64,000 nucleotides of DNA. Source: Escherichia coli (lineage in GTDB: Bacteria; Pseudomonadota; Gammaproteobacteria; Enterobacterales; Enterobacteriaceae). Numbering within the stretch: position 1 is the stretch's first letter; each line of letters starts with the position of its first letter. Positions 1 to 44,023 of this stretch are shown piece after piece. The notes under the pieces were generated by a model. It was given only the letters and a program-made list of their open reading frames with translations. It did not search any database and was not told the DNA's origin. The stretch lies in assembly GCF_024223415.1 (NCBI RefSeq), contig NZ_CP100500.1. One strand, 5' to 3'. The position numbers were made by a program, and so were the translations under genes.

Positions 1-1
1 T

Positions 2-619
2 GAACTCTGCGCCCGGCTGGAAAAAAAGATCGCTTCGTTGCGCGTCGGACCTGGCCTGAACCAGACGCCAGAAAACGAGATGGGGCCGCTGATCTCCGCC
101 GCACACCGCAGCAAAGTGTTGGGCTATATCGACAGTGGCGAAGCTCAGGGGGCTAACCTGCGTGTGGACGGGCGTGGCCTCAGAGTGAAAGGGCACGAGC
201 AGGGCTATTTCGTTGGGCCGACTCTGTTCGATAACGTCACCCCGGAGATGACCATCTATAAAGAAGAAATTTTCGGACCGGTGCTTTCTGTGGTGCGCGT
301 AGCAGATTACGCCAGCGCGGTGGATCTGATTAACCGACACGAATATGGTAATGGCTCGGCCATTTTCACCCGTGACGGTGGCTGCGCACGCCGCTTTTGT
401 GAAGAGGTGCAGGCGGGTATGGTGGGGGTCAACGTGCCGATCCCGGTGCCAATGGCATTCCACTGTTTCGGTGGCTGGAAACGTTCCATTTTTGGCGCGC
501 TCAATGTTCACGGGAACGATGGCGTGCGTTTCTACACCCGAATGAAAACCATCACTGCACGCTGGCCGGAAATGCAGCAGGAGACAGGTGCAGCGTTCTC
601 CATGCCGACGCTGGGCTGA
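2..619 (+). CDS. iolA: methylmalonate-semialdehyde dehydrogenase, C-terminal part (5' end lies outside the window)
   Basis: Reading frame is open from the window edge; aldehyde-dehydrogenase C-terminal sequence; directly upstream of iolD. Confidence 0.8.
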
Positions 620-630
620 CAGGGGGTTTT

Positions 631-2556
631 ATGCAAACCGAACGTATGACTATGGCCCAGGCGCTGGTCAGATTTCTTAACCAACAATATGTTAGCGTTG
701 ATGGTAAAGAAACGCCCTTTGTGGAGGGCGTGGCAACGATCTTTGGGCACGGTAACGTGCTCGGTATCGGCCAGGCGCTGGAGCAGGATCCTGGTCATCT
801 GCAGGTGATGCAAGGCTGTAACGAGCAGGGGATTGCCCATATGGCGACGGGATTCGCCAAACAGCATCGCCGTCAGCGTATTTTTGCTGTCACCTCATCC
901 GTTGGGCCTGGCGCTGCCAATATGGTGACGGCGGCAGCGACGGCCACGGCGAACCGCATTCCACTGCTGCTACTGCCAGGGGATATCTACGCCTGCCGCC
1001 AGCCTGACCCCGTGTTGCAGCAGATCGAGCAGTATCACGATCTCAGCATCAGTACCAACGATTGCTTCCGCCCGGTTTCCCGCTACTGGGACCGCATCAA
1101 CCGTCCTGAACAGCTTATGAGCGCGATGTTAAGTGCGATGCGAACGCTTACTGACCCCGCAAATACAGGAGCGGTGACCATTTGCCTACCTCAGGATGTG
1201 CAGGGGGAGGCCTGGGATTACCCCCTGAGTTTCTTTGCGCGTCGGGTGCATCATATTGAACGCCGTCCGCCTGACCCGCAGCGACTGGCGCAGGCTCATG
1301 CATTGATTTCCCGCAAGCGCCGTCCACTGGTGGTGTGCGGCGGTGGCGTGCGTTACTCCGGTGCGCATGAGGCGTTACGGGAATTTGTTGAAGTGCTGCA
1401 ATTGCCGTTTGCCGAAACCCAGGCCGGTAAGGGGGCGCTGGTAAGTGACCACCCGCTTAATCTGGGCGGGGTGGGCGTGACGGGCGGAATGGCTGCCAAC
1501 CAGCTTGCGCCGCAGGCTGACTTAGTGATTGGCATCGGCACGCGCCTGACGGATTTTACTACCGGCTCTAAGGCGCTCTTTTCTCATCCCGACGTCGAGT
1601 TCCTGCTGCTGAACGTGGCTGAGTTTGACTCCCTGAAGCTGGATGCCACCGCGCTCATTGCCGATGCCCGAACTGGTCTGACAGCGTTGACCCACGCACT
1701 GAAAGATTATCGTAGTGGCTGGGGGGAGGCGATTGCCCATGCGAAATCCGCTTGGCACGATGAATGCTGTCGACTGTGGGAACGCCAGTGGCATCCTGAC
1801 GACGTTCCCGAAGTGGCAGGGCACCTTGATGCACAGCTAATGGAATACGGTGAAACGCTCAACACACACCTGACCCAGACGCGGGTGTTGGGGCTCATTA
1901 ACCAGCATATTGAGGATAACGCCATTGTGGTGGGGGCGGCCGGATCGCTGCCAGGGGATTTGCAACGCCTCTGGCAGGTTAAAACGCCTGACAGTTACCA
2001 TCTGGAGTATGGTTACTCCTGCATGGGGTATGAGGTCGCAGCGGCTATTGGTGCGAAGCTGGCAAAACCTCAGCAGCCGGTGTATGCCATGGTAGGCGAT
2101 GGTTCGTACATGATGCTGCACTCAGAGCTGCAAACTGCCGTACAGGAGGGAATTAAGGTCACCATTCTGCTGTTTGATAACGCCAGCTTCGGCTGCATTA
2201 ATAACCTGCAGATGGGGCACGGAATGGGGAGTTTTGGCACAGAAAATCGTTACCGTAATCCGAAAACAGGTCAGCTTGACGGGCCGTTGGTGAAGGTCGA
2301 TTTTGCGCAAAACGCGGAAAGCTACGGTTGCCGCGCATGGCGGGTACATAATGAGAAAAGCCTGCTGGCGGCGCTGGAAGCCTCGCGCGCTCACCCGGGA
2401 CCGACGCTCCTCGATATCAAAGTGCTACCAAAAACCATGACCCATGATTACGCGTCATGGTGGCGAACCGGCAACGCACAGGTGGCAGAGTCGCCAGCAG
2501 TGCGCCAGGCCGCCGAGCAAACACAGGCTCAGGTGAAAAAAGCTCGTCAGTATTGA
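631..2556 (+). CDS. iolD: 3D-(3,5/4)-trihydroxycyclohexane-1,2-dione hydrolase (TPP enzyme)
   Basis: 641-aa ORF with thiamine-pyrophosphate enzyme architecture; GGGGG RBS 5 nt upstream of ATG; iol context. Confidence 0.85.
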
Positions 2557-2607
2557 GTTTTCCTGTCGTAACGAAATTTTCATTTCATTTTTCTTTTTTC
2601 CCCTCAC

Positions 2608-2638
2608 CCATCCCCTCTCCCAACGGGAGAGGGGATGG
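2608..2638 (+). terminator. GC-rich hairpin (CCATCCCCTCTCC / GGGAGAGGGGATGG) followed by T-rich tract
   Basis: Perfect 13-14 bp stem directly after the iolD stop; a second CCCTCC/GGAGGG hairpin follows at 2651-2677. Confidence 0.4.
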
Positions 2639-2840
2639 TACAGTTTTTATTCCCTCCCCCCCTTGTAATGGAGGGACATATCTTCCTCGGCGTTGTGAGA
2701 TTGATAACAAAATTTATCTAATACATCTCAAAAGTGTTAACTGGCACTCAAAATATAATTTTCACTATTTATAAAAATGAAATAAATGTTTTATTTGTAG
2801 TGTCGTTAGTTCACCGCATTCATCAACACCGGGAGCCGTT

Positions 2841-3827
2841 ATGTTTAACATTGCTTTACTGGGCGCTGGCCGAATTGGCCAGGTACATGCAGCTAACATC
2901 GCCAGCCATAGTGCGACCACGCTCTGGTCTGTGGTAGACCCGAATCAGGAGTTCGCCACGCGTCTAGCGACACAGTATCAGGCGCGCCAGCAGAGCCTGG
3001 ATGAGGCGATGACCGATCCGAACGTTCATGCCGTATTGATCGCCTCCGCGACCGACACCCACGCGGATCTGATTGAAATGGCCGCCCGTTACGGCAAAGC
3101 CATTTTCTGTGAAAAACCGGTACACCTTGATCTTGCCCGCGTACGCGACTGCCTGAAAGTGGTCAAAGAGTATGACGTACCGCTGTTTATCGGTTTTAAC
3201 CGCCGCTTTGACCCACAGTTCCGTCGCGTGAAAACCGACACTCAGGCCGGGCGTATCGGCAAACCGGAATCACTGCTGATCATCTCCCGCGATCCGTCTC
3301 CACCGCCTGCGGAGTACGTGCGTGTTTCCGGCGGCATGTTCCGTGATATGACCATCCACGACTTTGACATGGCACGCTTCATCATGGGTGAAGAGCCGGT
3401 GTCGGTGTATGCCCAGGGCAGCAATCTGGTGGATCCGGCGATTGGCGAAGCGGGAGATATCGACACCGCATTTATCGTTCTGAAATATGCCTCCGGCGCG
3501 ATGGCGACCATCGTCAACAGTCGCCGTTCTTCATACGGCTACGACCAGCGCCTGGAGCTACACGGTTCCGAAGGGCTGCTGTGCGCGGGCAATATCCTTG
3601 AAAACCAGGTGCAGCACTACGGCAAACAGGGTTGCACCAGCGCGCTGCCGGAACACTTCTTCCTGCAACGCTACAAATCCGCTTACGCAGCGGAATGGGA
3701 GCACTTTGTTGCGGTTCTGCGCGGCGAAGCGGTGCCTGATTGCAGCGGCGATGATGGTGAACGTGCGCTGTACCTCGCGGATAAAGCGCTGGAATCACTG
3801 CGTTGCCAGCGTGAGATCGTCCTCTAA
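2841..3827 (+). CDS. iolG: myo-inositol 2-dehydrogenase (Gfo/Idh/MocA family)
   Basis: N-terminal Rossmann motif LLGAGRIGQVHA; 328 aa; iol context. Confidence 0.8.
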   Translation: MFNIALLGAGRIGQVHAANIASHSATTLWSVVDPNQEFATRLATQYQARQQSLDEAMTDPNVHAVLIASATDTHADLIEMAARYGKAIFCEKPVHLDLARVRDCLKVVKEYDVPLFIGFNRRFDPQFRRVKTDTQAGRIGKPESLLIISRDPSPPPAEYVRVSGGMFRDMTIHDFDMARFIMGEEPVSVYAQGSNLVDPAIGEAGDIDTAFIVLKYASGAMATIVNSRRSSYGYDQRLELHGSEGLLCAGNILENQVQHYGKQGCTSALPEHFFLQRYKSAYAAEWEHFVAVLRGEAVPDCSGDDGERALYLADKALESLRCQREIVL

Positions 3828-3858
3828 ACACAACAACCCTACACAGAGAGACATAATA

Positions 3859-4788
3859 ATGAAAAAACTGATCTTAGCCGCCCTAATCGCCATGACATCC
3901 GGGGCCGCCATAGCCGAAAACGAGCAAATTGTTTTCAGTACGCCAAACCTGGCCATGCCGTTTGAAGTTCACATGCAGCGCACGGCGGTGAAAGCCGCAA
4001 AAGAGATGGGGGTGAAACTTCAGGTACTGGACGGTCAGGGCAGCTCACCGAAGCAGGTGGCTGACCTGGAAAACGCCATCACCCGTGGTGCGCAGGGCTT
4101 TATCGTCTCCCCGAACGATGTGAACGCGGTCTCCAGTGTGGTAGATGAAATTCAGGATACGAAGCTGCCGGTCGTTACGCTTGACCGCTCTGTCGACAGC
4201 CAGAAAAAAGTGCCGCACTTTGGTGCCAACAACTACAAGGGCGGCCAGGCGATTGGCGACTTCGTCAAAACCAAATTCCCCAACGGCGCGGAGATCATTC
4301 TGTTGACCGGTCAACCGGGTTCCTCCTCCAACATTGAACGCACCAAAGGGATCCGTGACAGCCTGAAGGCTGGCGGGGATATGTACAAGATCGTCGCCGA
4401 TCAGACCGGCAACTGGATGCGCTCGGAAGGGATGCGCATTGTCGAAAGCGTTTTGCCGTCGCTGCCAAAACGTCCTCAGGTGATCCTCTCTGCCAACGAT
4501 GATATGGCGCTGGGGGCGATTGAAGCGCTGCAGAGTCAGGGTGTGAAACCGGGTGAAATCCTGGTCACCGGTTTTGATGCGGTACCGGAAGCACTGGCCC
4601 GCGTGCGCGACGGCTGGCTGGCGGTTACGGCGGATCAGCGTCCCGGCTTTGCGGTGACCACGGCGATGAGCCAACTGGTGGCTAACGTGCGTGAGAAAAA
4701 AACTATCACCGGGGCGGACTATCCGCCGACGCTGATCACCAAAGAGAACCTGCAACAGGCTGAGCGTATTGCTGAGGCCGGTAACTGA
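3859..4788 (+). CDS. periplasmic sugar-binding protein of an ABC transporter
   Basis: Signal peptide MKKLILAALIAMTSGAAIA then periplasmic binding protein fold; start chosen at ATG 3859, not the long track ORF that overlaps iolG. Confidence 0.8.
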   Translation: MKKLILAALIAMTSGAAIAENEQIVFSTPNLAMPFEVHMQRTAVKAAKEMGVKLQVLDGQGSSPKQVADLENAITRGAQGFIVSPNDVNAVSSVVDEIQDTKLPVVTLDRSVDSQKKVPHFGANNYKGGQAIGDFVKTKFPNGAEIILLTGQPGSSSNIERTKGIRDSLKAGGDMYKIVADQTGNWMRSEGMRIVESVLPSLPKRPQVILSANDDMALGAIEALQSQGVKPGEILVTGFDAVPEALARVRDGWLAVTADQRPGFAVTTAMSQLVANVREKKTITGADYPPTLITKENLQQAERIAEAGN

Positions 4789-4839
4789 TTTGTCTGGAGC
4801 CGCCGTACGGGCGGCTCCCCATAAATAAGGAGCAGGCTG

Positions 4840-6062
4840 ATGTCGCAACCCTTACTGAAAGTAACCGACCTGGCAAAAAGCTTTTCCGGCGTATGGGCGC
4901 TGAGCAGCGCCCAGCTCACCGTCGGCACGGGTGAAATTCACGCTTTGCTGGGCGAAAACGGCGCTGGGAAATCCACGCTGTTGAAGGCACTCGCGGGCGC
5001 ACAGCCACAAACGCGCGGGGAGATCTGGTTCAATGGCGAAACGCTGCCGGTGGACGACTCCCCGGTAGAACGGCAGAACAAGGGCATTATCACCATCTAT
5101 CAGGAATTCAACCTGCTGCCCAATATGACCGTTGCGGAAAACATGTTTCTCGGACGCGAACCGCGTAAACGTAACCTGATCGTCGACGAAAAAGCGGTCA
5201 ATCAGGAAGCGCAGGTGATTCTCGATTATCTGCAGCTGAATGTCGCACCCACCACGCCAGTCGCCCGTCTGAGCGTGGCCCAGCAGCAGATGGTGGAGAT
5301 TGCCCGGGCGCTGACCCTCAATGCCAGGCTGATCATCATGGATGAACCCTCCGCCGCCCTGAGTGACAGCGAGGTGGAAAGCCTGCACCGCGTGGTGCGG
5401 GAGCTTAAAAACCGCGGCGTGAGCATTATTTACGTTACTCACCGTCTGCATGAAGTTTTCCAGCTTTGCGATCGTTTCACCGTTTTCCAGGATGGCCGTT
5501 TCACCGGCACCGGCGCAGTGACGGAGACGAACGTAGAGCAGTTGATCCGCCTGATGGTAGGGCGTGATGTGGCCTTTAACCGCCGCCCTGCCAGCGAAAC
5601 CCACCATGAAGACAAACCTGTCCGTTTGTCGGTGAAGGGGTTAAGCCGGGAAAAACCGCCGCTGGATCCACACGGCATCGCCCTGCATGACATCAGTTTT
5701 CACGTCCATGCAGGGGAAGTTCTGGGTATCGCTGGGCTGGTGGGGGCTGGTCGTACTGAGGTAGCGCGCTGCCTGTTTGGCGCCGACGCCTTTACCACCG
5801 GCAGCTTTGAGCTGGACGGCGTGCCGTACCAGCCGCGTGACCCACTTTATGCGCTGGAGCAAGGGCTGGCGCTGGTGCCGGAAGATCGCAAAAAAGAGGG
5901 GGCGGTGCTGGGTCTGTCGATTCGCGACAACCTGTCGCTCTCCTGCCTCTCCTCGCTGTTGCAGTGGCGCTGGTTTGTGAATACCCGCAAAGAGGACGAC
6001 CTGATTGAGTCCTACCGCCAGGCGCTGCAGATCAAAATGGTCAACAGCACGCAAGAGGTGCG
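4840..6062 (+). pseudogene. sugar ABC transporter ATP-binding protein, 5' part, interrupted by prophage insertion
   Basis: Walker A GENGAGKST, first signature and second Walker A present; homology stops after ...STQEVR at the prophage end; the 3' part resumes at 43682. Confidence 0.85.
6057..6062. repeat. target-site duplication, left copy (GGTGCG; exact length 5 or 6 bp)
   Basis: Both prophage junctions share the octamer AGGTGCGT; duplicated bases flank the element. Confidence 0.6.
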
Positions 6063-6140
6063 TGATGCGCCGCGCGATAAATGCGCTCTATCTTGTGCGA
6101 TAAATGACAACCAATCGGCGTTTCATTATTTGAAAAAGAA
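6063..6140. repeat. prophage end on the gin side (attR-like) with transposase-binding-type motifs
   Basis: TGATGCGCCGCGCGATAAATG...GCGATAAATG plus CGTTTCATTATTTGAAAAAG resembling the Mu end consensus; mirrored at the other end. Confidence 0.6.
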
Positions 6141-6700
6141 TTACATTTCAGGTTGCGTTATGACTGTCCCAGCGGGGTGATAGCGGTAGATCGTTGACAG
6201 TCCAATATCATAGATAATTACCAGCCGCTTTCTGTCATACCCTTTCTGGAGCAATCTTGCGATCTGCTCATGCTGCTCCTTCGTCAGTTTCGGGCGACGC
6301 CCTCCAACTCTCCCTTGTGCTCGCGCAGCAGTCAGTCCTGCCAGCGTGCGCTCAACTATCAGTTCACGTTCCATTTCTGCCAGTGCACCCATCATATGAA
6401 AAAAAGAACCTTCCCATCGGAGTGCTGGTATCGATTAAATCCGTCAGACTGCGAAAATTGACACCTTTTGCGCGTAGCTCTTCTGTGAGCGAAATGAGGT
6501 GTTTCATTCTTCTACCCAACCGTTACAGCTTCCAGACCACCAATGTATCCCCTCTTTTAAGGCACCTTAAAGCGCGTTTCAGGCCTGGTCGTTGCGACTT
6601 AGTTCCGCTCATTTGTCCTCAAAAATTTGTTCACATCCTGCGCACATTAATACATTGCGTTTTGGTCATTTGTTGACACACGTATGTAGCCAATCAGCAT
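6141..6700 (-). pseudogene. gin: Gin/Pin-family serine DNA invertase, inactivated
   Basis: Translation gives MLIGYIRVSTNDQN, CAGCEQIFEDK, RPGLKRAL..GDTLVVWKL, HLISL..GRFFF and the C-terminal HTH in different frames; in-frame TAA, a 7-A homopolymer frameshift (6399-6405) and further indels. Confidence 0.8.
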
Positions 6701-6770
6701 CAAAAACACTCCCTTTTGAGTGGTTAAAGTAGTGAGATAATGTGGGGAAGATTTGAGAGATAACCCGCCC

Positions 6771-6803
6771 CCGCAATATCGCATTTAACTATATTGTGAG
6801 GGC
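6771..6803. repeat. 33-bp inverted repeat, copy A
   Basis: CCGCAATATCGCATTTAACTATATTGTGAGGGC; 31 of 33 identical to the reverse complement of 7437-7469. Confidence 0.7.
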
Positions 6804-6815
6804 GCGTGATACCGT

Positions 6816-7430
6816 TCAGCCAGCAAGCGCCAGTGGCGCTTCCGGCCAGCTGATTTCAGGTGCCTTGCTGATATCCAGTGCGTTCAGATCGTCGATATAA
6901 TCCAGCACGGCATTCAGTTTTGCCGTTTCTTCTGGTGTCAGACTGCGACCTGCCCGCAACTTAAGGTTGATGAGGTCGATGGACTTCATCGCCTGATCCA
7001 CCCGTTCCTGGCGTTGCTGTCTGGCAACCTCCAGCTCTTCGGCTTGCTGCCGTTCTGTATCGGTTACCCACGCCTCACCGTTCCAGGTATCCCATGGTGT
7101 GGCAGGCTGTTTTGTCGTTGTCCCTTCCGGGTAGTCACCTGGTTGGGTAATCTGGACCGGATTACCGTTCTCTGTGCTGTATACCGTCTCTCCACGATGA
7201 TCGGGGACATACTCCCACCCGTCCAGCGTGGACGTCCGGCAAATCACGTAACCCGGCATTGCCTCTGGCGGGGCATCGGCGCATGAATGTGCCGGGGTAC
7301 CCACCCCCAGGGCCAGATACTCCACAGAGGATGAGGTGTATTCCCGGGTTTCCTCATCATAGTGATATACAGTGATATCGCCTGCGAAAGTGGCGATACC
7401 GTTTTCATCCAGAACTGCAGTGTTACTCAT
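6816..7430 (-). CDS. tail fibre assembly protein (Mu U-like)
   Basis: 204-aa tail fibre assembly protein sequence; start ATG overlaps the tail-fibre stop (TAATG). Confidence 0.8.
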   Translation of the reverse strand: MSNTAVLDENGIATFAGDITVYHYDEETREYTSSSVEYLALGVGTPAHSCADAPPEAMPGYVICRTSTLDGWEYVPDHRGETVYSTENGNPVQITQPGDYPEGTTTKQPATPWDTWNGEAWVTDTERQQAEELEVARQQRQERVDQAMKSIDLINLKLRAGRSLTPEETAKLNAVLDYIDDLNALDISKAPEISWPEAPLALAG

Positions 7431-9268
7431 TAAACTGCCCTCACAATATAATTAAAAGCGATATTGCGCGGTCTGATCGCTATCCATCTGTCTTTTTCAT
7501 TACTCACCAGCTTACCGGCTCTGGCTATTGCCCATCTGTCAACTGGTTTTGTGCCGTACAGGATGCCGTTACCGGTTCTGGGTTGATCAGGGGTTATGTT
7601 TATGATGTCGTTATCATGTGATGCAAATGAAATCCCTGCCTGAATATCTGCACCTCCCGCTACGCCGTGGTACGCCTGTATGGAGGTACAAATATATGTT
7701 GCTTCCTGTGTGGATAACAATAAGCGTCCCCTGTCAATCATTCGCAGGTCATCCCATCCACGAATAAATTCCCCGCGCAAATCTGGTAGCCTGAGGTCAG
7801 GGTAGGCCACCGCCAGTTTTGGGTATTTTGTACGCGTGAATGCGGCACCGTTGCACTGTAACCACCCCTCAGGTGGTCTTGACGAAGGCCACGGAACGGG
7901 TACGCCAACTGGCAGCGTCGAGCCTTCTCCTAAACCAAGGTAATCAAGAATATCTTTTATGCTTTGTTTACCCATGATGACGCGGGCAACAGACGAAAAA
8001 ACAGGGGCGTCTGTGATCTGAGCCCAGCGATGAGTGTGGGCTGCCGAGGCTTTGCTGTTGGCAAGGTCATACGCAGCTTTAACAGCTTTTGGTGTGGCCG
8101 CCAGCATTTCGGAATTGCTGTTTGTGGCGCTGCTTAGCTGTACGATGCCTTTGCGTCCGGTGGTTGCATCCTGTCCTGTATACTTGCTCGTCAGCATATC
8201 GTGTAAGGCTTTAACCGCTTTGGGGGTGGCGGCCTCAGTCTCTGACTCACTGTTTGTGGCACTGCTCAGCTGTACGGTGCCTTTTGCCGTCAGCGAGGCT
8301 GATGGCACACCTGTTATCTGATTCCACGGGTGGGTGTGGCTGGCGGGTGCTTTACCGGCTGCAAGGTCATATGCAGCCTTGACGGCTTTTGGTGTGGCCG
8401 CCAGCGTTTCGGAATTGCTGTTTGTGGCGCTGCTCAGCTGTACGATGCCTTTGCGTCCGGTGGTTGCATCCTGTCCTGTATACTTGCTCGTCACCATATC
8501 GTGTAAGGCTTTAACCGCTTTGGGGGTGGCGGCCTCAGTCTCTGACTCACTGTTTGTGGCACTGCTCAGCTGTACGGTGCCTTTTGCCGTCAGCGAGGCT
8601 GATGGCACACCTGTTATCTGATTCCACGGGTGGGTGTGGCTGGCGGGTGCTTTACCGGCTGCAAGGTCATATGCAGCCTTGACGGCTTTTGGTGTGGCCG
8701 CCAGCGTTTCGGAATTGCTGTTTGTGGCGCTGCTCAGCTGTACGATGCCTTTGCGTCCGGTGGTTGCATCCTGTCCTGTATACTTGCTCGTCACCATATC
8801 GTGTAAGGCTTTAACCGCTTTGGGGGTGGCGGCCTCAGTCTCTGACTCACTGTTTGTGGCACTGCTCAGCTGTACGGTGCCTTTTGCCGTCAGCGAGGCT
8901 GATGGCACACCTGTTATCTGATTCCACGGGTGGGTGTGGCTGGCGGGTGCTTTACCGGCTGCAAGGTCATATGCAGCCTTGACGGCCTTCGGTGTGGCGG
9001 CCAGTGTTTCAGAAGTGCTGTTTGTGGCGCTGCTCAGTTGGGTGAATCCTTTTTCTGTCAGTGTCGCGTCAGGGTGGTTACGGGAACGTGCGTGTTCAGC
9101 CAGTGACTGTGCGACTTCCTCCGTTTTCTTCTTCAGCCATTTCGTCCTGTTTGCCAGTTGCCGGGGGGCTCGATTTGATATCCCGTCTGCACCACCCAGA
9201 ACCGGATCTGATGTCTCCAGTTGATAGATATTTTCTTCCCACTTTTCTGTTTCATTCAGGTTTCCCAT
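7430..9268 (-). CDS. tail fibre protein (Mu S-like) with internal 100-aa repeats
   Basis: Repeated SSATNS..ETLAATPKAVKAAYDLA..HTHPW motifs; GGGAG RBS before ATG at 9268. Confidence 0.85.
   Translation of the reverse strand: MGNLNETEKWEENIYQLETSDPVLGGADGISNRAPRQLANRTKWLKKKTEEVAQSLAEHARSRNHPDATLTEKGFTQLSSATNSTSETLAATPKAVKAAYDLAAGKAPASHTHPWNQITGVPSASLTAKGTVQLSSATNSESETEAATPKAVKALHDMVTSKYTGQDATTGRKGIVQLSSATNSNSETLAATPKAVKAAYDLAAGKAPASHTHPWNQITGVPSASLTAKGTVQLSSATNSESETEAATPKAVKALHDMVTSKYTGQDATTGRKGIVQLSSATNSNSETLAATPKAVKAAYDLAAGKAPASHTHPWNQITGVPSASLTAKGTVQLSSATNSESETEAATPKAVKALHDMLTSKYTGQDATTGRKGIVQLSSATNSNSEMLAATPKAVKAAYDLANSKASAAHTHRWAQITDAPVFSSVARVIMGKQSIKDILDYLGLGEGSTLPVGVPVPWPSSRPPEGWLQCNGAAFTRTKYPKLAVAYPDLRLPDLRGEFIRGWDDLRMIDRGRLLLSTQEATYICTSIQAYHGVAGGADIQAGISFASHDNDIINITPDQPRTGNGILYGTKPVDRWAIARAGKLVSNEKDRWIAIRPRNIAFNYIVRAV
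7437..7469. repeat. 33-bp inverted repeat, copy B (inside the last codons of the tail-fibre gene)
   Basis: GCCCTCACAATATAATTAAAAGCGATATTGCGC; partner of 6771-6803. Confidence 0.7.
7985..9000 (-). repeat. in-frame tandem repeat, 300-bp unit, about 3.4 copies
   Basis: Near-identical 95-aa antisense ORFs at 8034, 8334, 8634 and 8934 reveal the 300-bp period; sense strand encodes repeated 100-aa units. Confidence 0.7.
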
Positions 9269-9270
9269 AA

Positions 9271-9849
9271 TCAACTTCTCCCGTGGTTATAACTGCCATC
9301 ATGGATGGCGGTATTGTTATAGCGAATGGCCACAGACTGATACTCCAGGCTGGCCAGATGGCAGCGGGCCGGTGCAAATGCAGTGAGCGTCTGACGCAGC
9401 ATCGCGGCCTGATCGTTAGTAATGGGCTGTTTCAGAATAACGCGATAAACCGCCCAGCCTGCTGTATCTCCATGAACAAACAGTCCGTTATGGCTGCGAT
9501 TGCCGTCGTAACTGAGACGACCTGTGCCTTCAATCAGATCCACTTCACCAAAGCCAAAACGGCGGATAACTTCCCGGATTGACCACGGCGTCCCTTTATA
9601 CCGGTGCAGTTCGATGGCTGCTTTTATAAGCATGCGGCGAACATCGTCCGATTCCGCCAGCTCCCAGCCATCGCCAGACAGTGAGAACTGCTCGCCCAGC
9701 CATGGCAGCGCGGAACTGTCGACGATATCGACGAGAAAGACCATCAGTACGCTCAGGTCGATGTTATCCAGCCGTCCTGCCAGTCTTCCCAGCGTCCTGA
9801 GACTGATATCACCCTCAAGCGGTGGCGGGAGTTGTAATGGCTCAGTCAT
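9271..9849 (-). CDS. baseplate/tail protein (P2 gpI-like, Mu gp48-like)
   Basis: 192 aa; position between baseplate J and tail fibre. Confidence 0.75.
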   Translation of the reverse strand: MTEPLQLPPPLEGDISLRTLGRLAGRLDNIDLSVLMVFLVDIVDSSALPWLGEQFSLSGDGWELAESDDVRRMLIKAAIELHRYKGTPWSIREVIRRFGFGEVDLIEGTGRLSYDGNRSHNGLFVHGDTAGWAVYRVILKQPITNDQAAMLRQTLTAFAPARCHLASLEYQSVAIRYNNTAIHDGSYNHGRS

Positions 9850-10945
9850 CAGACACTCCAGTCATGTTAAGTGTGATCGCCGTACAGTTTGCCCATTCGT
9901 TTTCTGCCACCACCCTCAGTGCCGGTGTCACCAGCTCAACCTGGTACACCCCGGAAACGGACAATGCACTGATAATCTGGCTGGGGACAATATCACGCCC
10001 CAGCGCGGTGGCACGTGATGCCACCCAGTTCTGTATGGCGCTGTTAGCGTTGTCCTTTACCAGCCTTGCATCCTGGTCACGATAGATCGTAATCCTGGCT
10101 TCAATGGTGTAATCCACCTTCACTGGTGTTTTAGCCCGCACGGTATCAGTGAGTGGTCTGACTTTTTCGTCCGAACAGAAACTCTCTACCAGCGTCAGAA
10201 CACCGCTGTCCGGCAGGCCGGTGCTCAGCAGCGGATAAATTTCTACTGTGCCGGGAACCGGGGAAAGTACAGCAACATCGACAATGCCGGGATGGGCCTG
10301 CATGGCATGAAAGCGGTATGCGCCACGGCTTCCGGCATTGGTGAATGACTCCGGGGCCAGCCTGATACGCTCCCGGAGCCTGTCATCGTCTTCCTGTTCT
10401 GAACCGCCGGAGCTGGCCGTCAGATTGCTCACCAGCAGGTCGACGTTATCAATCTCATCGAGTAACTGACTGACCTGCGCAGGTTGCCAGCCGTTACCAG
10501 CAGTACCGGGTTCGGTACAGGTGGCCGTGACATTGACCAGTAGCAATCCGGCCTTCAGTACCACATCTGTATCGGTGGCAAAAATAACGCTGTCGGAAGC
10601 GCTGACGCGGGTGCCTGCCGGGATCAGCACATCAATGGCCAGTGCCTCATCCACAGAGAACTGGAGCGTGGTGGTGGCAGGCTGCGCGGCAAGGCGGTAT
10701 ACACCGACCAGTTCACCGAGGTAATCAATCATCGGCTCACGGGCAAAGGCGACAAGATTCTGCTTTGCTGCCTCCTGTACCGCAACCCTGACCAGCATTT
10801 CGCGATAGGCCCACAGGTCAATCAGCAGACGTTCTGCCTGTGCCGGGTACAACGTTTTGCCGGTATCCGCTTCATATTTCGCAATTATTTCTGCCGTGAT
10901 TTTATCGGCATCGCGTTCAATAAAATCGGGTTCTGTCAGCGCCAT
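9842..10945 (-). CDS. baseplate J-like protein (Mu gp47-like)
   Basis: 367 aa; baseplate J family sequence and position. Confidence 0.85.
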   Translation of the reverse strand: MALTEPDFIERDADKITAEIIAKYEADTGKTLYPAQAERLLIDLWAYREMLVRVAVQEAAKQNLVAFAREPMIDYLGELVGVYRLAAQPATTTLQFSVDEALAIDVLIPAGTRVSASDSVIFATDTDVVLKAGLLLVNVTATCTEPGTAGNGWQPAQVSQLLDEIDNVDLLVSNLTASSGGSEQEDDDRLRERIRLAPESFTNAGSRGAYRFHAMQAHPGIVDVAVLSPVPGTVEIYPLLSTGLPDSGVLTLVESFCSDEKVRPLTDTVRAKTPVKVDYTIEARITIYRDQDARLVKDNANSAIQNWVASRATALGRDIVPSQIISALSVSGVYQVELVTPALRVVAENEWANCTAITLNMTGVSDD

Positions 10946-11283
10946 AGCAGCTCCTGAGTCCGGGTCTGTCCGTCTGAGCCTTTCCAGCTCACCCGGAGCG
11001 TAAGATGTTCGCCGTCGACGGCGGGTTTAACCGACATAAGCTGGCAGCGGGGTTCCCAGCGCCGGATGGCATCGACGGATTCGCGCACCACATGCGGAAT
11101 GGCCCGGTCTACAGGCCAGTCGATATAAAGATGCAGATTGCTGCCGAACTCCGGGCGATGCGGGTCGCTGCCGCGGGGAGTCCGCAGGATAATTTGAATC
11201 GCCTGCCGGATATCATCCAGCCCCCGGACAATTTCGCCGGGAGCCTGCAGGGCTGGTTGCCAGAATACTGAGGTGGTTTTCAT
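10936..11283 (-). CDS. baseplate protein, GPW/gp25 family (Mu gp46-like)
   Basis: 115 aa; family-typical sequence; overlaps J start. Confidence 0.8.
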   Translation of the reverse strand: MKTTSVFWQPALQAPGEIVRGLDDIRQAIQIILRTPRGSDPHRPEFGSNLHLYIDWPVDRAIPHVVRESVDAIRRWEPRCQLMSVKPAVDGEHLTLRVSWKGSDGQTRTQELLWR

Positions 11284-11339
11284 GGGGGCAGTATTGCCCC
11301 CGGGAAGTAAGCGCCGATATTAAAGGCGTTTAAGAAGGT

Positions 11340-11867
11340 TCAATGGGAATGGTGATTAGAGTTCTGACCATCAGCAAATATGTCACCCGTTGCATGGGCG
11401 CTTCCGTTGATTTCCAGATCACCATTGAGTGTCGCGTTGCCGTTGATTGTGGTAACTCCCGTGAGGTCAATGTCTTTCCCTTTGAGAGAGATATCAGCGG
11501 CAACCTCCACCACGATACGCTCAATACCTCCTCTGACCGTCAGCGTATGGGTCGCGCGGTTATAACTGAACTCCGCGCCATCAGCGTATTTCGTACCCCG
11601 GACGCTTTTATCACTGAACGGCGGTTTATCGACGTCTGAGTACACCGCGCCCAGAATAACACCGTCCTCGCCGTTGGCATCGAGCAGCACCTCAACCTGC
11701 TCCCCCACGTCAGGGAGCCAGTAATCCTTGTTATCCTGGGTATTGCGCTGCAGCACGTTAAGCCAGTTTGTGCGCAGGTTATCGCATTCAGGCAGACGAA
11801 CGCGGGCCTGAACCCTGTCGGCATCAACGGCACTGACCGTACCGACCTGACGAGTGACACCAGTCAT
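11340..11867 (-). CDS. baseplate assembly/spike protein (gpV-like, Mu gp45-like)
   Basis: 175 aa; N-terminal OB-like region then Gly/Asn-rich C-terminus. Confidence 0.75.
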   Translation of the reverse strand: MTGVTRQVGTVSAVDADRVQARVRLPECDNLRTNWLNVLQRNTQDNKDYWLPDVGEQVEVLLDANGEDGVILGAVYSDVDKPPFSDKSVRGTKYADGAEFSYNRATHTLTVRGGIERIVVEVAADISLKGKDIDLTGVTTINGNATLNGDLEINGSAHATGDIFADGQNSNHHSH

Positions 11868-13018
11868 TTTTTCTTCTCCTTAATCACCGTCGATGTACTG
11901 CCATCCGGGTGATAAACCGTGAGTTTCTGAGTTTTTTGTTTTTTCCCTCTTGTGACTGGCCCCCGTGCCACTTCCAGCTCTGTGGTGTAGCCGCTGTTAC
12001 GGTCAAACGCATGGCGGGCAGTGGTTATGAGCCATGGCCCGGATAACTGCCCAAAACCCACCAGTTCAATTTTGTTGCCTGCTGTCAGTTGAGGCGTTCC
12101 CGTCAGCGTCAGGGAGCCGTTCTGCTGGTATTCGTTATGTCTGGCCAGTGCTGAATCCGCTTTAATCCGGGCACTGTCCGGGTCGCTGACGCGGCTGTTA
12201 ACTTTAAGTGAGTCAGCGCTGGTAACCTTACCACCTTTGAGCTTTTTGTCGCTTTCACGGGTACCACCATCAGCTTCGTAGACGATCAGTTTTTTACTGC
12301 TGCTTTTCTGGTGTTTTACCTTTGCAGATTTATAGACCCGGTTGATGGTGTCACGCAGGGAAAAGCGGGCCACATCCTGCGGTTTTAACTGCCTGACCGG
12401 CTCCTGACTGCGCAGTGTGGCCAGATGAGAAAAAATCAACTGGTCACTGACCACTTTCACTGCATAACCATACTCGCTGGCCAGCCGGCGCAGAAAACCC
12501 ACGTCGGTTTCAGCATACTGGGTCACCCGGTCGATTCTGATGGACTCAATGCTGCCCACCAGTTTCAGTCGGTGCTTTCTGGCAATCCGCCCCGCAACAG
12601 CTGCCAGAGTGGTGTTCTCAAAACCACGGCTGGATTTAGTCCGCAGAGCACTGTTAACCGAGGTGGCCACCCCACGGATAGCGACAACGGACGCGGGCGA
12701 ACTCACTTCGATCTCGTCTATTGAGAATGTACCGCAGGACAGCAGTTTCTCGCCCTGATAACCCATTTTCAGCGTCAGCGTGTCACCCTTGCCCGGATAC
12801 CACTTATCCAGCCAGCGGCCATCGGTGTCGTCCAGCTCCACCTCAATGGTATCGGACTCATTTTTGATGTTATCGCTCCAGACCACACGGGTGACATAAG
12901 GCGCGATATCAGAGGTGATGTTTTTCTGCAGATACCACATAGTGAACACCGGCGTCAGCACCTCGCTGACGCCGGTTAACGCTGATGTGGCTTGCGCAGT
13001 GCTGTTTATCTCAGCCAT
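11864..13018 (-). CDS. tail/baseplate hub protein (P2 gpD-like, Mu P-like)
   Basis: 384 aa; conserved position after tail protein X. Confidence 0.75.
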   Translation of the reverse strand: MAEINSTAQATSALTGVSEVLTPVFTMWYLQKNITSDIAPYVTRVVWSDNIKNESDTIEVELDDTDGRWLDKWYPGKGDTLTLKMGYQGEKLLSCGTFSIDEIEVSSPASVVAIRGVATSVNSALRTKSSRGFENTTLAAVAGRIARKHRLKLVGSIESIRIDRVTQYAETDVGFLRRLASEYGYAVKVVSDQLIFSHLATLRSQEPVRQLKPQDVARFSLRDTINRVYKSAKVKHQKSSSKKLIVYEADGGTRESDKKLKGGKVTSADSLKVNSRVSDPDSARIKADSALARHNEYQQNGSLTLTGTPQLTAGNKIELVGFGQLSGPWLITTARHAFDRNSGYTTELEVARGPVTRGKKQKTQKLTVYHPDGSTSTVIKEKKK

Positions 13019-13221
13019 GGGGCAATATCCTCTTCTGTACGGGCATCTTCAGCCTCAATAACCGGGATCAGTAACAACAACCCGGAGGGCAGCACCGGCG
13101 TGATAGCCACGTGCGGATTGGCTGCAATAATCCGGGGATAGCCCAGCGGGTCACCGTAGTACTGCCATGCCAGCGAATCCCAGCGCTCTCCGTCACGGGT
13201 AATATGTTCAAGAAACATCAC
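13006..13221 (-). CDS. tail protein X-like
   Basis: 71 aa; small protein between gpU-like and gpD-like genes. Confidence 0.7.
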   Translation of the reverse strand: MMFLEHITRDGERWDSLAWQYYGDPLGYPRIIAANPHVAITPVLPSGLLLLIPVIEAEDARTEEDIAPWLR

Positions 13222-14102
13222 ACACTCCTCGTCAGTATTCTGGCGGCCATTGCACTTAATCGCGGAGACATGCGGTTGAATGCTGTGCCGGCGGCGTTAA
13301 GCTGCCCGGAAACGGTATCCAGAGCACCTGCAATATTTCTTTTGTCCACACCACTCAGCGCAGACTGTGCCTGCTGTATATACGTGGCTGCTTCGCTGGC
13401 TGTTCTGGCCAGACTGATGGCATCGGGCATGGATTCAGAGAGTGCATTAAATGCCGGCACACTTTTCCCCAGAGCGCCGGATATATTACCCAGTCCGCTC
13501 ATCAGTCCCGGCACACGGGTCAGCGCGACAACGGGGTTATCCTTCATTTTCTGCGCCACCCGAACGGCACTGATGGTGGTCTGGAGTACAGACTGCGCCT
13601 GTTTCGCATAGTTGACACCGTTGCGGATGAACTGTGCCCCCCCGGAAGGCGATGGAACGGCACCAGATACGGCCCCGGCACCGGGAACCTGCCTGCGTAT
13701 TGCCGGTGGTTTCAGGGGATTCTTCGGGTCACCGGTGTATTCCCGGAGAGACACGGTTGCGCTGACAGCCAGTACGTTGCCGGTACTGTCAGTCTGCTCG
13801 CTGGTTGCAGTCACATCGGTAATCACGAACCAGGCGCGATAGTCACCGTTGCCGAAGACCAGCGCCAGTGCCTGATGGGCTTTCATGGCTGCCCGAAGTC
13901 TCGCCAGCTCCACGTCGGGCACACAATAATGCTGATGGAAGACCAGACTTATCTGGATTTCGTCCAGCCTGTCGCCGACGAACTGCAGACCGGGCTTACT
14001 CCCGATGCGGGCATGCTCCGCATAATCGACGCCAGACGTGGCCTCGAAGCCGTCCCAGTAGGTAATCAGCTCAAACTCAATATCACCCAGTACGGCAAAC
14101 AT
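13218..14102 (-). CDS. tail protein (P2 gpU-like / Mu N-like)
   Basis: 294 aa; immediately downstream of the tape measure gene. Confidence 0.65.
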   Translation of the reverse strand: MFAVLGDIEFELITYWDGFEATSGVDYAEHARIGSKPGLQFVGDRLDEIQISLVFHQHYCVPDVELARLRAAMKAHQALALVFGNGDYRAWFVITDVTATSEQTDSTGNVLAVSATVSLREYTGDPKNPLKPPAIRRQVPGAGAVSGAVPSPSGGAQFIRNGVNYAKQAQSVLQTTISAVRVAQKMKDNPVVALTRVPGLMSGLGNISGALGKSVPAFNALSESMPDAISLARTASEAATYIQQAQSALSGVDKRNIAGALDTVSGQLNAAGTAFNRMSPRLSAMAARILTRSV

Positions 14103-17100
14103 CAGCGGTACTCCTTACGTTGTTTCTGAGCCAGCAGACGCTCCAGCATTTTTTCCAGCTCATGCAGACTCATATTCAGGGCACCAGTCAGTCCTGCAGG
14201 CGCTGTGGTTTCCCTGCCATTGAGGAAAAACTGAGGATTAAAGCTGACCTGGATACCACCAGACGTTCCACCGCCGGTTGCAGCTGCACCACGGCCTGAA
14301 TATCCGGCAGCCAGGATTTCAGGCGAGGGGATACGGGGAATATCCGGTGCCATCTCATTTGCCAGACGTTGCCCTGGTAAAATCGATGCCCGGGTGGAGA
14401 GCGGAATAGCGGGCATGGAAGACAAACTATTGATTACGGCTCCGATCGCATTTTTAGCAGACGACATAAACCCATTGATATCGGGCAACGGCATACTGAA
14501 GCGAACACCTGAAGTGTTATCCCGTATTTCTGGCCCCTGAATGCTCACGGGCATTTTGGGGAGCAGTTCACTGGCCATTCGCTGCCCGGCCAGAGCTGCA
14601 AGCGGAGTAGTCCGCTGCAGGCCAATGGCGGCCCCCTGCGCGATATTGTCGCCAAAGACCATAAACACGCGGCTCGGCGAATGAATGCCCAGCTTTTCGC
14701 TGAACCAGCCACTGATGCTGTCACCCATTCCGGTTACACTGGATTTGAGCGACTCCCATTTGTTTTTGATACCGTTAATCAGACCATCGACAAGATGGCC
14801 ACCGAAGTCGGTAAACTTTGCCGGCAGATCAACACCAAGATATTTCATCGCAGCTGCAAAGGCTTTATAGAGCAGACCTGCCGGCGACCAGTTAATCAGC
14901 AACTTACCAGTTCCCACAATGCCGCCGTTAAAGGCTTCCTGAATGTCAGCCCAGCACTGTTTAAACCAGCTACTGATGCTGTCACCCATTCCGGTTACAC
15001 TGGATTTGAGCGACCCCCATTTGTTTTTGATACCGTTAATCAGACCGTCGACAAGATGGCCACCGAAGTCGGTGAACTTTGCCGGCAGAGCAACGCCGAA
15101 ATATTTCAGCGCAGCTGCAAAGGCTTTATAGAGCAGGCCTGCCGGCGACCAGTTAATCAGCAACTTACCAGTTCCCACAATGCCGCCGTTAAAGGCTTCC
15201 TGAATGTCAGCCCAGCACTGTTTAAACCAGCTACTGATGCTGTCACCCATTCCGGTTACACTGGATTTGAGCGACCCCCATTTGTTTTTGATACCGTTAA
15301 TCAGACCGTCGACAAGATGGCCACCGAAGTCGGTGAACTTTGCCGGCAGAGCAACGCCGAAATATTTCAGCGCAGCTGCAAAGGCTTTATAGAGCAGGCC
15401 TGCCGGCGACCAGTTAATCAGCAACTTACCAGTTCCCACAATGCCGCCGTTAAAGGCTTCCTGAATGTCAGCCCAGCACTGTTTAAACCAGCTACTGATG
15501 CTGTCACCCATTCCGGTTACACTGGATTTGAGCGACCCCCATTTGTTTTTGATACCGTTAATCAGACCGTCGATAAGATGGCCACCGAAGTCGGTGAACT
15601 TTGCCGGCAGAGCAACGCCGAAATATTTCAGCGCAGCTGCAAAGGCTTTATAGAGCAGACCTGCCGGCGACCAGTTAATCAGCAGCTTACCAGTTCCCGC
15701 GATACCGCCGTTAAAGGCTTCCTGAATGTCAGCCCAGCGCTGTTTAAACCAGCCACTGACTGCCCCCCAGTTGCGGTAGATAAGGTAAGCTGCTGCCGCG
15801 ACAGCGGTGATAACGAGACCGATGGGATTCATCATCAGCGCCCGGCCAATCCAGAGAACGGCACGCCCGGCGATCATAATGCCGCGAACCAGTCCCCCGG
15901 AGAGCACACCACCCAGTGTTCTGACTCCTCTGGCGACGGCACCAAAGCCGGTCACCAACCAGCGAAGCTTACCGCCTTCCCCCAGTGCAAGCGTCAGACG
16001 AAGCCAGTTGGTCCGGAGTAAAACAGCAGTTTTCCAGACGTTCACAAAGGGGGAAATAAGGAGATTCAGCCCCAGTTTGAGACCAATAGTCGCTATCTTA
16101 ATCGCAAGGAGCGCACTGATGAGCTTAAAAGCCCCACTGACAAATTGCGGGTGAGTCGCCACCCAGTGTTTTGCCCCCTGAATGACTGGGATCAGCTCCT
16201 GAGTCAGAGAAATAAAAGAAGGGGCGAGCTGATCGCCCAGCGTAATAGCCAGATCGCGACTGCTGACCATAAGCGCTTTAGTGGCTTCAAGGGGAGATTT
16301 CAGCCGCTGATCGTAAGCACTGGCAAGCAAATCGTTATCCGCAGCCCTGAGAGCACCGGCACGGATCTCGCGATATCTGTCCATGTTGGCCAGCATCGGG
16401 CGGATAAATGCCATGACCTGCATATCCGCGAACATATCGCCCAGACCAAAGTTTTTCGCCAGAGCCTGAAGTGCCTCATCTCTTGCCGTATCATTCTTTA
16501 TTTTCATGGCGGATTTGAAGCCGGCCAGCGCTTCGGGGCTTTTGGCATTGAGGTAACGTTCTATAACACTCAACATCCCTTCAATCGGAGAGATCCCCGC
16601 AGCCTTATAACTCGCAACAGAACCCTGCAAATCAATACCCAGATCAGCAAACTGTTTCTGAGTATCGCGGGCAAAAATTTTGGTAAGAAAGTTTTTAAAA
16701 TTATTGGCTGCTTCGTCGGTGGAGCCCGCACCGATTTTTGCTACCTGGAGACTGGCCCCGATTTCAGCAACAGCCTCTTTTCCACTGGCAATACCCGCCA
16801 TCATTGGGGCCAGGGACTGCATCCACTTGACCTGATCCGGGATTTCAAATGACCCCTGGTCACCGGCATAAGCCATAATATTCTGGACGGCACTAAAATC
16901 TCTGGCGGCACCTTTCAGGGAGTTTTGCCAGACTGCGGCCACTTTTGCCCAGTCCTGAGATGACGTGCGTGTTGCCGTTGCCGCGCGGGCAATATCCGGC
17001 ATCAGAAAACCGATATCTGACAAGTTATCAATATTGTCGCTGATGAGCGAACCCACCGCCTCCTGCAGTTCATCCTGATACTGATTGTATTTTAGCGCCC

Positions 17101-17575
17101 AGCCTTTTATCTGTCCGGCAAGTGCATCCCGCGTTTTATTGTCATATTTTGCGGTGATCGACATATCAATCATTTTGTCCTGAAAAGACATGGACTGCTG
17201 AACGGCAGGGGAAACCGTATGATAAACAGTCTGTGCCATGCCATACGCTTCAATCCCCTGACCATACAGCGCCATGCGGTTAGCTTTCAGCGCATCACTG
17301 GTGGCTGATGCCGCTGACAGACGGCGCTGCTGGCGCTCAATTTGCTCCATGGTGCGGCTTACCCGCAGCAGCTCGCTGTTGAGATGCTGCATCCGGGAAG
17401 AGCCCAGTTGACCATAACGTTCTGTTGCACGGGTTAAAGCGTTCTGACGTTCCTGCAGGCGGCGTGAGGTATCGCTCAGGGAATCAAGCGCACGGCGGGT
17501 ACCGCTCATTGCAGAACGGAATGTGCTGCCAATCATCCCGCCGATAACAACGCCGACTGAAAACTGTCCCGACAT
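14102..17575 (-). CDS. tail tape measure protein with five tandem 87-aa repeats
   Basis: About 1157 aa; coiled-coil N-terminus, hydrophobic core, repeated WFKQCWADIQEAFNGG... unit; start taken at ATG 17575 with GGAGG RBS (track ORF extends to 17635). Confidence 0.85.
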   Translation of the reverse strand: MSGQFSVGVVIGGMIGSTFRSAMSGTRRALDSLSDTSRRLQERQNALTRATERYGQLGSSRMQHLNSELLRVSRTMEQIERQQRRLSAASATSDALKANRMALYGQGIEAYGMAQTVYHTVSPAVQQSMSFQDKMIDMSITAKYDNKTRDALAGQIKGWALKYNQYQDELQEAVGSLISDNIDNLSDIGFLMPDIARAATATRTSSQDWAKVAAVWQNSLKGAARDFSAVQNIMAYAGDQGSFEIPDQVKWMQSLAPMMAGIASGKEAVAEIGASLQVAKIGAGSTDEAANNFKNFLTKIFARDTQKQFADLGIDLQGSVASYKAAGISPIEGMLSVIERYLNAKSPEALAGFKSAMKIKNDTARDEALQALAKNFGLGDMFADMQVMAFIRPMLANMDRYREIRAGALRAADNDLLASAYDQRLKSPLEATKALMVSSRDLAITLGDQLAPSFISLTQELIPVIQGAKHWVATHPQFVSGAFKLISALLAIKIATIGLKLGLNLLISPFVNVWKTAVLLRTNWLRLTLALGEGGKLRWLVTGFGAVARGVRTLGGVLSGGLVRGIMIAGRAVLWIGRALMMNPIGLVITAVAAAAYLIYRNWGAVSGWFKQRWADIQEAFNGGIAGTGKLLINWSPAGLLYKAFAAALKYFGVALPAKFTDFGGHLIDGLINGIKNKWGSLKSSVTGMGDSISSWFKQCWADIQEAFNGGIVGTGKLLINWSPAGLLYKAFAAALKYFGVALPAKFTDFGGHLVDGLINGIKNKWGSLKSSVTGMGDSISSWFKQCWADIQEAFNGGIVGTGKLLINWSPAGLLYKAFAAALKYFGVALPAKFTDFGGHLVDGLINGIKNKWGSLKSSVTGMGDSISSWFKQCWADIQEAFNGGIVGTGKLLINWSPAGLLYKAFAAAMKYLGVDLPAKFTDFGGHLVDGLINGIKNKWESLKSSVTGMGDSISGWFSEKLGIHSPSRVFMVFGDNIAQGAAIGLQRTTPLAALAGQRMASELLPKMPVSIQGPEIRDNTSGVRFSMPLPDINGFMSSAKNAIGAVINSLSSMPAIPLSTRASILPGQRLANEMAPDIPRIPSPEILAAGYSGRGAAATGGGTSGGIQVSFNPQFFLNGRETTAPAGLTGALNMSLHELEKMLERLLAQKQRKEYR
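14640..15750 (-). repeat. in-frame tandem repeat, 261-bp unit, about 4.5 copies
   Basis: Antisense ORFs at 14685, 14943, 15204 and 15465 are near-identical; sense strand repeats an 87-aa unit. Confidence 0.7.
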
Positions 17576-17650
17576 AGTGGTTAACCTCCGGGGAAGGTGA
17601 AAAGACGTGAGGGGATAACGCAGAACAGCCGCCACTGGCGGCTGTCTGTA

Positions 17651-17735
17651 CTACGATTTGTCGCCGTACTCGCTTTTGATTTGCTCTTCAGCCTGCTCCA
17701 GCCACATCTCCAGATCGTCAGTATCGAGGGCATCA
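17651..17735 (-). other. frameshift extension of the tail assembly chaperone (+1, equivalent to -2, frame)
   Basis: Overlapping ORF 17651-17908 is offset by +1 from the chaperone frame; a GGGGG run lies just before the chaperone stop. Confidence 0.5.
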
Positions 17736-18068: not shown

Positions 18069-18165
18069 GATTGTGCTCCTGTGTAAGTTCAGGGCAGTAT
18101 GTCGGGAGAAGCGCGTGACGGATATTAAAGGAGATTAAGAAGAAGGGGCCGGAGCCCCTGTGATG

Positions 18166-18447: not shown

Positions 18448-18449
18448 CG

Positions 18450-21549: not shown

Positions 21550-21550
21550 C

Positions 21551-21886: not shown

Positions 21887-21896
21887 AGACTTCTCC

Positions 21897-37545: not shown

Positions 37546-37555
37546 GGAGGGAAAC

Positions 37556-44012: not shown

Positions 44013-44023
44013 CGGAGTTTCTC

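Follow-up and report, generated by a model that had tools for sequence, protein, structure and literature searches.

Tail fibres determine which bacteria a phage infects. In P2 (gpH), Mu (S), P1 (S) and lambda or lambdoid phages (Stf), these proteins carry the same repeat, PF03406 (Phage_fiber_2, 'Pf2'), with the motif ..KG.VQLSSAT.S.SE..AATPKAVK.. in common. The gene described here is a fibre gene of this kind, placed on the minus strand at positions 7430-9268 of a 64,000-nucleotide (nt) stretch of Escherichia coli DNA (contig NZ_CP100500.1, assembly GCF_024223415.1), hereafter the window. It belongs to a Mu-like prophage, and its PF03406 repeats form a tandem array at the DNA level. P2 gpH contains two PF03406 repeats. 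Mu S has a single one, at residues 110-149, whereas here two types of repeat, A and B, are combined in a higher-order unit of 100 amino acids (aa) that is present in a near-perfect DNA array of 3.4 copies. The position of the gene, after gpI/gp48 and before the Tfa chaperone, is the one seen in these known fibres, and the sharing of its parts between unrelated phages resembles the mosaicism of the P2, Mu, P1 and lambda fibres. Fibre segments common to these four phages were reportedly recognized by Haggard-Ljungquist et al. and Sandmeier et al., both in 1992. In this prophage, the machinery for segment inversion found with the Mu and P1 fibres has decayed.

The Pf2 repeat has been described in lambda Stf and in prophage fibres of enterohaemorrhagic E. 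coli (EHEC; PMC3368898). Its structure and function were little known as of 2012 and were still unsolved in 2021. The side-tail-fibre proteins of EHEC prophages, some of which contain Pf2, have collagen and coiled-coil domains that differ by whole multiples of the repeat (PMC3368898). The periods of those repeats are 3 or 7 residues, whereas the period here is 100 residues (56+44) and the DNA copies are identical. In T-even phages, duplicating a small domain of the fibre widens the host range, and conserved motifs are the sites of exchanges (Tetart 1996, 1998, cited in PMC3157838). The T-even gp37 fibre, as described in that work, likewise combines in-frame duplication of modules with swaps of the distal adhesin at conserved 'His-box' motifs. 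The likeness to T4 gp37 includes an A unit with an HxH motif and a tip related to the gp37 collar (PDB 2XGF). On the other hand, the repeat family is a different one and the shaft modules lie upstream of the tip, not in a tip needle. The duplications in T4 were obtained by experimental selection for host range.

Literature searches returned no study dedicated to copy-number variation of PF03406 arrays. The PF03406 repeats, the mosaic fibres and the fibre-domain duplications are already established; the locus is an expected instance of known principles and overturns nothing in current understanding. What is particular to it are the higher-order 300-base-pair (bp) unit, the perfectly identical internal copies and the clear ladder of lengths among relatives.

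Anatomy of the repeat array

Tandem Repeats Finder called a sole array at this locus, at 8061-9037, with a period of 300 bp, 3.3 copies, 98% matches, 0% indels and a score of 1863. An identity scan of the coding strand at a shift of 300 nt placed the array at nt 241-1260 of the gene (~9034-8015 in the window), corresponding to 3.4 copies. The array, overall 8015-9037 on the minus strand, is thus composed of 3.3-3.4 head-to-tail copies of near-identical DNA, in frame and with a unit length divisible by 3. The longest perfect run at this shift has 492 nt (8986-8495 paired with 8686-8195), and neighbouring copies are 100% identical across the central ~540 nt. Such near-perfect repetition over ~1 kb is far above chance expectation, and the 64-kb window has just one other long array. 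An earlier reading of the DNA, made from the letters and their open reading frames (ORF) and referred to here as the sequence-only reading, had described the same period and about 3.4 in-frame copies, which both methods reproduce. It had located the array at 7985-9000, where an array indeed lies, although its ends are displaced by ~30 bp on each side.

The 100-aa unit contains two PF03406 repeats. The A type (56 aa) is formed by a 40-aa core and a 16-aa linker, ASHTHPWNQITGVPSA, and bears the HTHPW motif, whereas the B type (44 aa) is formed by the core and a 4-aa linker, without HxH. The module length given by the sequence-only reading was therefore right, but the single HTHPW-bearing module that it described is in fact this pair, with HTHPW in the 56-aa repeat only. 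The fibre layout is an anchor (aa 1-70), followed by A1, B1, A2, B2, A3, B3 and A4, and then by the tip. A1 (aa 71-126, numbered from the TTG start; 8897-9064) and B1 (aa 127-170; 8765-8896) are followed by A2 (8597-8764), B2 (8465-8596), A3 (8297-8464), B3 (8165-8296) and A4 (7997-8164), all on the minus strand. A2 and A3 are identical at 168 of 168 nt, and B1 and B2 at 132 of 132 nt. B3 differs from these two B units by 1 nt (1 aa) and equals the last B unit of the P2-like prophage L006. The differences between A1 and A2 are confined to the 5' half of A1. The terminal unit A4 has diverged: it carries HTHRW, has 79% DNA identity to A2 and A3, and is 99% identical to the last A unit of L006. 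Since A2 equals A3 and B1 equals B2, but identity between the A and B cores is only ~60%, an old split between A and B was followed by a very recent duplication of a B-A pair.

The fibre ORF is intact and extends from TTG at 9274 to 7430. The ATG at 9268, preceded by GGAG, is probably the actual start, as judged from the sequence: the product of 612 aa then begins with MGNLNETEKW, like its database homologues. Pfam detects PF03406 (Phage tail fibre repeat) seven times (i-Evalue 4.5e-20 to 7e-16), each match spanning positions 1-40 of the 42 in the model, and a Collar domain (PF07484) at aa 457-504 (E 5.5e-13). Tail-fibre families of PHROG match down to E 1e-146, the best match being a family of unknown function (phrog_10372, 4.6e-206). 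The distal tip (7430-7996, minus strand) includes the Collar domain, ends in ...NIAFNYIVRAV and matches the receptor-binding tip of T4 gp37 (PDB 2XGF, E 4.1e-13); the conserved C-terminal motif NIAFNYIVR gives a second, weak match to the same entry. These domains and matches, together with the place of the gene between gpI and the chaperone, confirm the assignment to a tail fibre that the letters had first suggested.

The HTHPW of A1-A3 and the HTHRW of A4 place HxH at regular spacing along the fibre, and HxH is retained in 22 of 36 diverse homologous segments. It recalls the HxH motifs by which trimeric fibres and spikes bind metal (the T4 gp37 needle and the P2 gpV apex). This is a lead, and the shaft may be trimeric, with metal bound at HxH. 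Searched against PDB sequences, neither the entire fibre nor its repeat region alone matched anything beyond the collar of T4 gp37 and of the short fibre, and the one Mu S repeat. The cryo-electron microscopy and crystal structures of Mu resolve only the N- and C-terminal parts of the fibre (PMC11915804). An AlphaFold2 model of three linked B-A copies, computed with a tripled alignment of 26 sequences, was discarded (mean predicted local distance difference test, pLDDT, 43; predicted template modelling score 0.31).

Copy number among relatives

The phage GenBank collection yielded only four partial DNA matches, and the comparison therefore rests on E. coli chromosomes. Copy number is polymorphic among near-identical prophages of a single lineage. 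One relative of the fibre, P0028 (412 aa), matches the window protein at the N- and C-terminal ends and is exactly 200 aa shorter in between; a second, P0018 (568 aa), has 44 aa fewer than the window fibre. The contigs that carry them (L013 for P0028, L014/L015 for P0018) belong to the prophage lineage of the window, with 99.4-99.6% identity on both sides of the array. They have the phage end equivalent to 6063, the 204-aa chaperone and the broken invertase found in the window, at other insertion sites. When copy number is compared across these related prophages, as the sequence-only reading had proposed, the lineage holds 1.4 (L013), 2.8 (L014/L015) and 3.4 units (window). The 412-aa allele was also considered as a collapsed assembly of the window allele. 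This was rejected, as its B unit and A1 differ from the collapse prediction: the B unit reads DMVTSK, whereas a simple collapse would leave DMLTSK before A4. From these residues, the short allele is probably real.

The 1.4- and 2.8-unit alleles are found in draft assemblies, and layouts and spans were therefore rechecked in complete genomes only. The fibre layouts in these genomes are ABABAB (587 aa), ABAAB (543 aa), AB (327 aa), ABAAA (626 aa) and AB-A'[130-aa insert]-ABA (744 aa), A' denoting an A unit that the insert truncates. Spans between fixed query end-points were sized in an evenly spaced sample of 711 matching records from complete E. coli genomes. They fall in exact 300-bp steps (4254/4554/4854, 4572/4872 and 5745/6045), and the pair 4254/4422 differs by 168 bp, or one A unit. 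In strain AR_0085 (L002) the units share only 62-82% identity with those of the window, but the B-A pair of that strain is present in two 100% identical copies, which indicates that the duplication arose there independently.

Arrays of 168 bp (56 aa, A-A-A) replace or overlap the 300-bp array in three relatives (L001 5981-6409, L003 5981-6409 and L007 4082-4559). Because some relatives carry such arrays, amplification also acts on the single A sub-repeat.

Motifs were also counted by anchor in the 120 best protein homologues. Their number varies with each type of anchor, and the spacing mostly alternates between 56 and 44. Fibres with the MGNLNETEKW anchor have 3-11 motifs. Those with the P2 gpH-type anchor (PF12571) have 5-9, and those with the P1-type anchor (PF25060) 6-14. 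The MSTRKFRTLI (PF12571) anchor was at one point taken for that of lambdoid side-tail fibres, which was rejected because the P2-sized gpV-W-J-I context shows it to be P2 gpH-type. One homologue (P0004) has the same repeats and tip on a P2-type anchor, minus one unit, and P2-type fibres of 756 and 812 aa occur in complete genomes. Across the family as a whole, one unit finds matches (E<=1e-3) in 1,723 representative clusters, and the matched stretches number 1 to 17 per protein. The proposal of the sequence-only reading that copy number changes in frame is thus upheld by the identical internal units, the 1.4/2.8/3.4 allelic series, the 300- and 168-bp ladders and the 3-11 motifs behind one and the same anchor.

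Shaft modules, exchange of tips and competing explanations

The most convincing explanation, held with considerable confidence, is that the array is a fibre shaft of alternating A and B PF03406 repeats in which the B-A pair was duplicated very recently and in place. Where direct repeats stand in tandem and agree over several hundred bases, they are subject to unequal exchange, which depends on RecA, and to slippage, which does not. Either process, unequal homologous recombination or slipped replication, would act between adjacent units to duplicate the 300-bp B-A pair and lead to the order A-B-A-B-A-B-A. Each step would gain or lose a whole module of 100 aa (or of 56 or 44 aa) and would keep the reading frame, the baseplate anchor and the receptor-binding tip. 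As whole units are gained or lost, the shaft modules change while the anchor and the tip stay. Only the number of shaft modules would vary, and hence presumably the shaft length; receptor reach, adsorption and host range might be affected in turn. The conserved repeats would also supply the homology for swapping the distal shaft, tip and chaperone between unrelated phages, as seen here, where a Mu-like anchor is joined to a cassette common to P2-like prophages.

Several points weigh against this explanation. The 1.4- and 2.8-unit alleles come from drafts, in which perfect repeats can collapse, and the copy number given for the window is that of the assembly. The PDB searches found no solved structure that spans such a repeat array. 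The trimer prediction failed (pLDDT 43), and its sole hint is a set of short strands and a ~13-residue helix per repeat. Moreover, the invertase is a pseudogene, so that selection on fibre length may no longer operate in this prophage.

A different role for the repeats has to be weighed in view of a breakpoint inside the array. The prophage of E. coli LR-31 (L012, NZ_AP027520.1) is 99.6% identical to the window over 8807-22500. There are zero mismatches from 9500 down to 8878, a stretch that includes the anchor and A1 and extends 18-19 nt ("SLTAKG") into B1. The breakpoint lies at 8878/8877, just past SLTAKG, and beyond 8877 the LR-31 prophage has another, short distal fibre (327 aa in all, two repeats) with a different tip and chaperone. 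RefSeq describes this LR-31 fibre as two pseudogene fragments (8700-9690). An uninterrupted 327-aa ORF (MGNLNETEKW...YVVGVGRV) is present, and the pseudogene annotation may be wrong.

P2-like prophages, by comparison, match the window on the other side of the breakpoint. Among 26 complete genomes with such prophages, the identity is 98.9% over 6833-8474 (L006) and 97.2% over 8672-9102, and the homology ends at 9103, where the N-terminal anchors differ. The distal cassette of ~2 kb (6833-8877, minus strand), which comprises B1 onward, the tip and the chaperone, has 98-99% identity to P2-like fibres but differs from the sister Mu-like prophage. These identities indicate that a P2-like and a Mu-like prophage exchanged the cassette, by one crossover within the repeat and a second at the 3' end of the chaperone gene. 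This use of the array as a crossover point for swapping tips, like the make-up of the unit from two copies of a known Pfam repeat, had escaped the sequence-only reading. Anchors of three kinds, Mu-like, P2-type (PF12571) and P1-type (PF25060), precede these repeats and this tip.

In L006 (3501-5735, NZ_CP033635.1) and in the identical fibres of L008-L011, a non-repeat domain (SDALSMAFVKP...WSEWVEVTNTDA) sits inside an A unit. It splits the P2-like array in two, with a motif spacing of 174 aa there versus 44, and looks like a globular knob grafted on the shaft.

The breakpoint exactly within a repeat, the near-identity of the distal 2 kb to P2-like prophages and the three kinds of anchor that precede the repeats and tip could all mean that the array is mainly a recombination adapter for tip swapping between phage families, with copy-number change as a neutral by-product. 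There is a precedent in T-even phages (Tetart 1998, cited in PMC3157838). This possibility deserves attention, but on balance it is doubted. It is compatible with the shaft explanation rather than exclusive of it, and it leaves unexplained the repeated independent expansion, with up to 14 motifs and 17 matched stretches, when 1-2 repeats suffice for homology. A bolder proposal unites both roles: the A+B pair would be a stackable shaft module and a fast contingency switch, operating at ~1e-4 to 1e-3 per generation through perfect repeats of 300-500 nt and tuning the length of Mu-, P2- and P1-like fibres to O-antigen or capsule depth, and at the same time a universal splice site for tip-plus-chaperone cassettes. 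In this full form the proposal is speculative and rather unlikely.

The in-place duplication of shaft modules also has to be set against an error of assembly, in which the copy number would have been mis-estimated from perfect 300-bp repeats. Two units are 100% identical over 300 bp, which is longer than short reads, and an exact look-up of the 614-aa product (TTG start) returned no entry in a collection of ~15 billion proteins, from which this allele is therefore absent. However, complete genomes such as L002 hold the same architecture with 100% identical internal units, the 300-bp ladders in complete genomes are regular, and the outer units of the window array differ at unit-specific positions in the same way as their orthologues in L006 and L007. 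An artefact is accordingly regarded as improbable. The array could instead be an old and static structural repeat, whose units purifying selection on the fold keeps alike and whose copy number is now fixed, as the strong conservation of PF03406 in the proteins of many phages might suggest. Selection on the protein cannot account for the identity within the A2/A3 (168 nt) and B1/B2 (132 nt) pairs, because the synonymous sites are identical as well; between the A and B cores, by contrast, identity is only ~60%. With near-identical prophages that vary in copy number, this idea is largely refuted and retains very little probability. Finally, hardly any credence can be given to the view that four plus-strand ORF (8034, 8334, 8634 and 8934) are genuine genes in repeated copies, with the fibre frame incidental, for although these frames are open and match phrog_26766 and phrog_24241, the opposite strand carries one unbroken reading frame of 612 aa, strongly backed by Pfam, PHROG and PDB and with operon-style overlaps of start and stop. 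The four frames (95-96 aa, near-identical) stand in the ORF list just as the sequence-only reading had reported them, and they are antisense shadows of the repeat. The two families that the antisense ORF (8034-9224, plus strand) match (E 2e-15 and 1.5e-10, respectively), both of unknown function, probably collect this antisense frame, wrongly called as a gene in other phages.

A single gene therefore displays two routes of fibre evolution, namely the stepwise change of the shaft by whole modules and the replacement of the tip by crossover within the repeats. There is also a practical warning: short-read assemblies easily collapse or break perfect 300-bp repeats, so that fibre lengths taken from draft genomes are unreliable. 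Chimeric fibres could be engineered at the edges of the repeats, such as after SLTAKG, which are natural joints that keep the frame.

The surrounding Mu-like prophage

In the window, 1-6063 and 43681-49688 match the E. coli myo-inositol (iol) island at 99.6-99.8% identity, and in this island a 37.6-kb insert (6063-43681) disrupts a sugar ABC-transporter ATPase gene. A target sequence of 5-8 bp (within AGGTGCGT) is duplicated at the two junctions, and GATAAAT motifs are repeated at each end of the insert. The insert encodes a MuA-like transposase (35776-37545; phrog_310, E 8e-147) and a MuB-like protein (37529-38722; phrog_296, E 5e-93), and from these sequence features it is recognized as a Mu-like transposable prophage. 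Related prophages adjoin truncated upaG, yfaL or yejF, or sit within other prophages. The tail module, as represented by its baseplate genes, is found in 637 of 5426 complete E. coli genomes (~12%).

The tail module has the order D-V-W-J-I-fibre-chaperone. Upstream of the fibre are gpI-, gpJ-, gpW-, gpV- and gpD-like genes, followed by the tape measure, the tube and the sheath. The start of the fibre gene overlaps the stop of gpI, and its stop overlaps the start of the chaperone gene (TAATG). The N-terminal anchor of the fibre (9103-9268, minus strand, ~55 aa, MGNLNETEKW...) is specific to the Mu-like tail module. In Mu, the N-terminus of the fibre docks onto a gp48/gpI-like wedge protein (PMC11915804). 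The assembly chaperone (204 aa; 6816-7430, minus strand) matches phrog_105 (E 2.2e-88), and PF02413 (Caudo_TAP) was found on the chaperone gene of equal length in L013.

A DNA invertase frame lies at 6141-~6715, with at least two frameshifts and a stop, and only an 84-aa C-terminal ORF (6141-6395) is left; the frame is a pseudogene, and no intact serine DNA invertase was found beside the fibre genes. The oppositely oriented cassette of ~430 bp that encodes an alternative fibre C-terminus in relatives (3677-4109 in L001) is absent from this prophage, where a relic, ..RPRNIAFNYIVRA, remains on the plus strand at ~6770-6810. Because the invertase is broken and the alternative cassette is missing, the tip is locked in one orientation. 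Variation of this fibre driven by the invertase was considered and is ruled out on the same two grounds.

The prophage contains a second in-frame tandem array, at 14703-15759, with 4.0 copies of a 261-bp (87-aa) unit at 97% match. It sits in the tail tape-measure gene (14102-17635, minus strand). Repeats of the tape measure set the tail length and are thus, like those of the fibre, modular repeats in a length-determining protein, although the protein and the repeat family are different. The draft contig L013 breaks exactly at this array, and the LR-31 sister prophage has the same 4.0 copies as the window.

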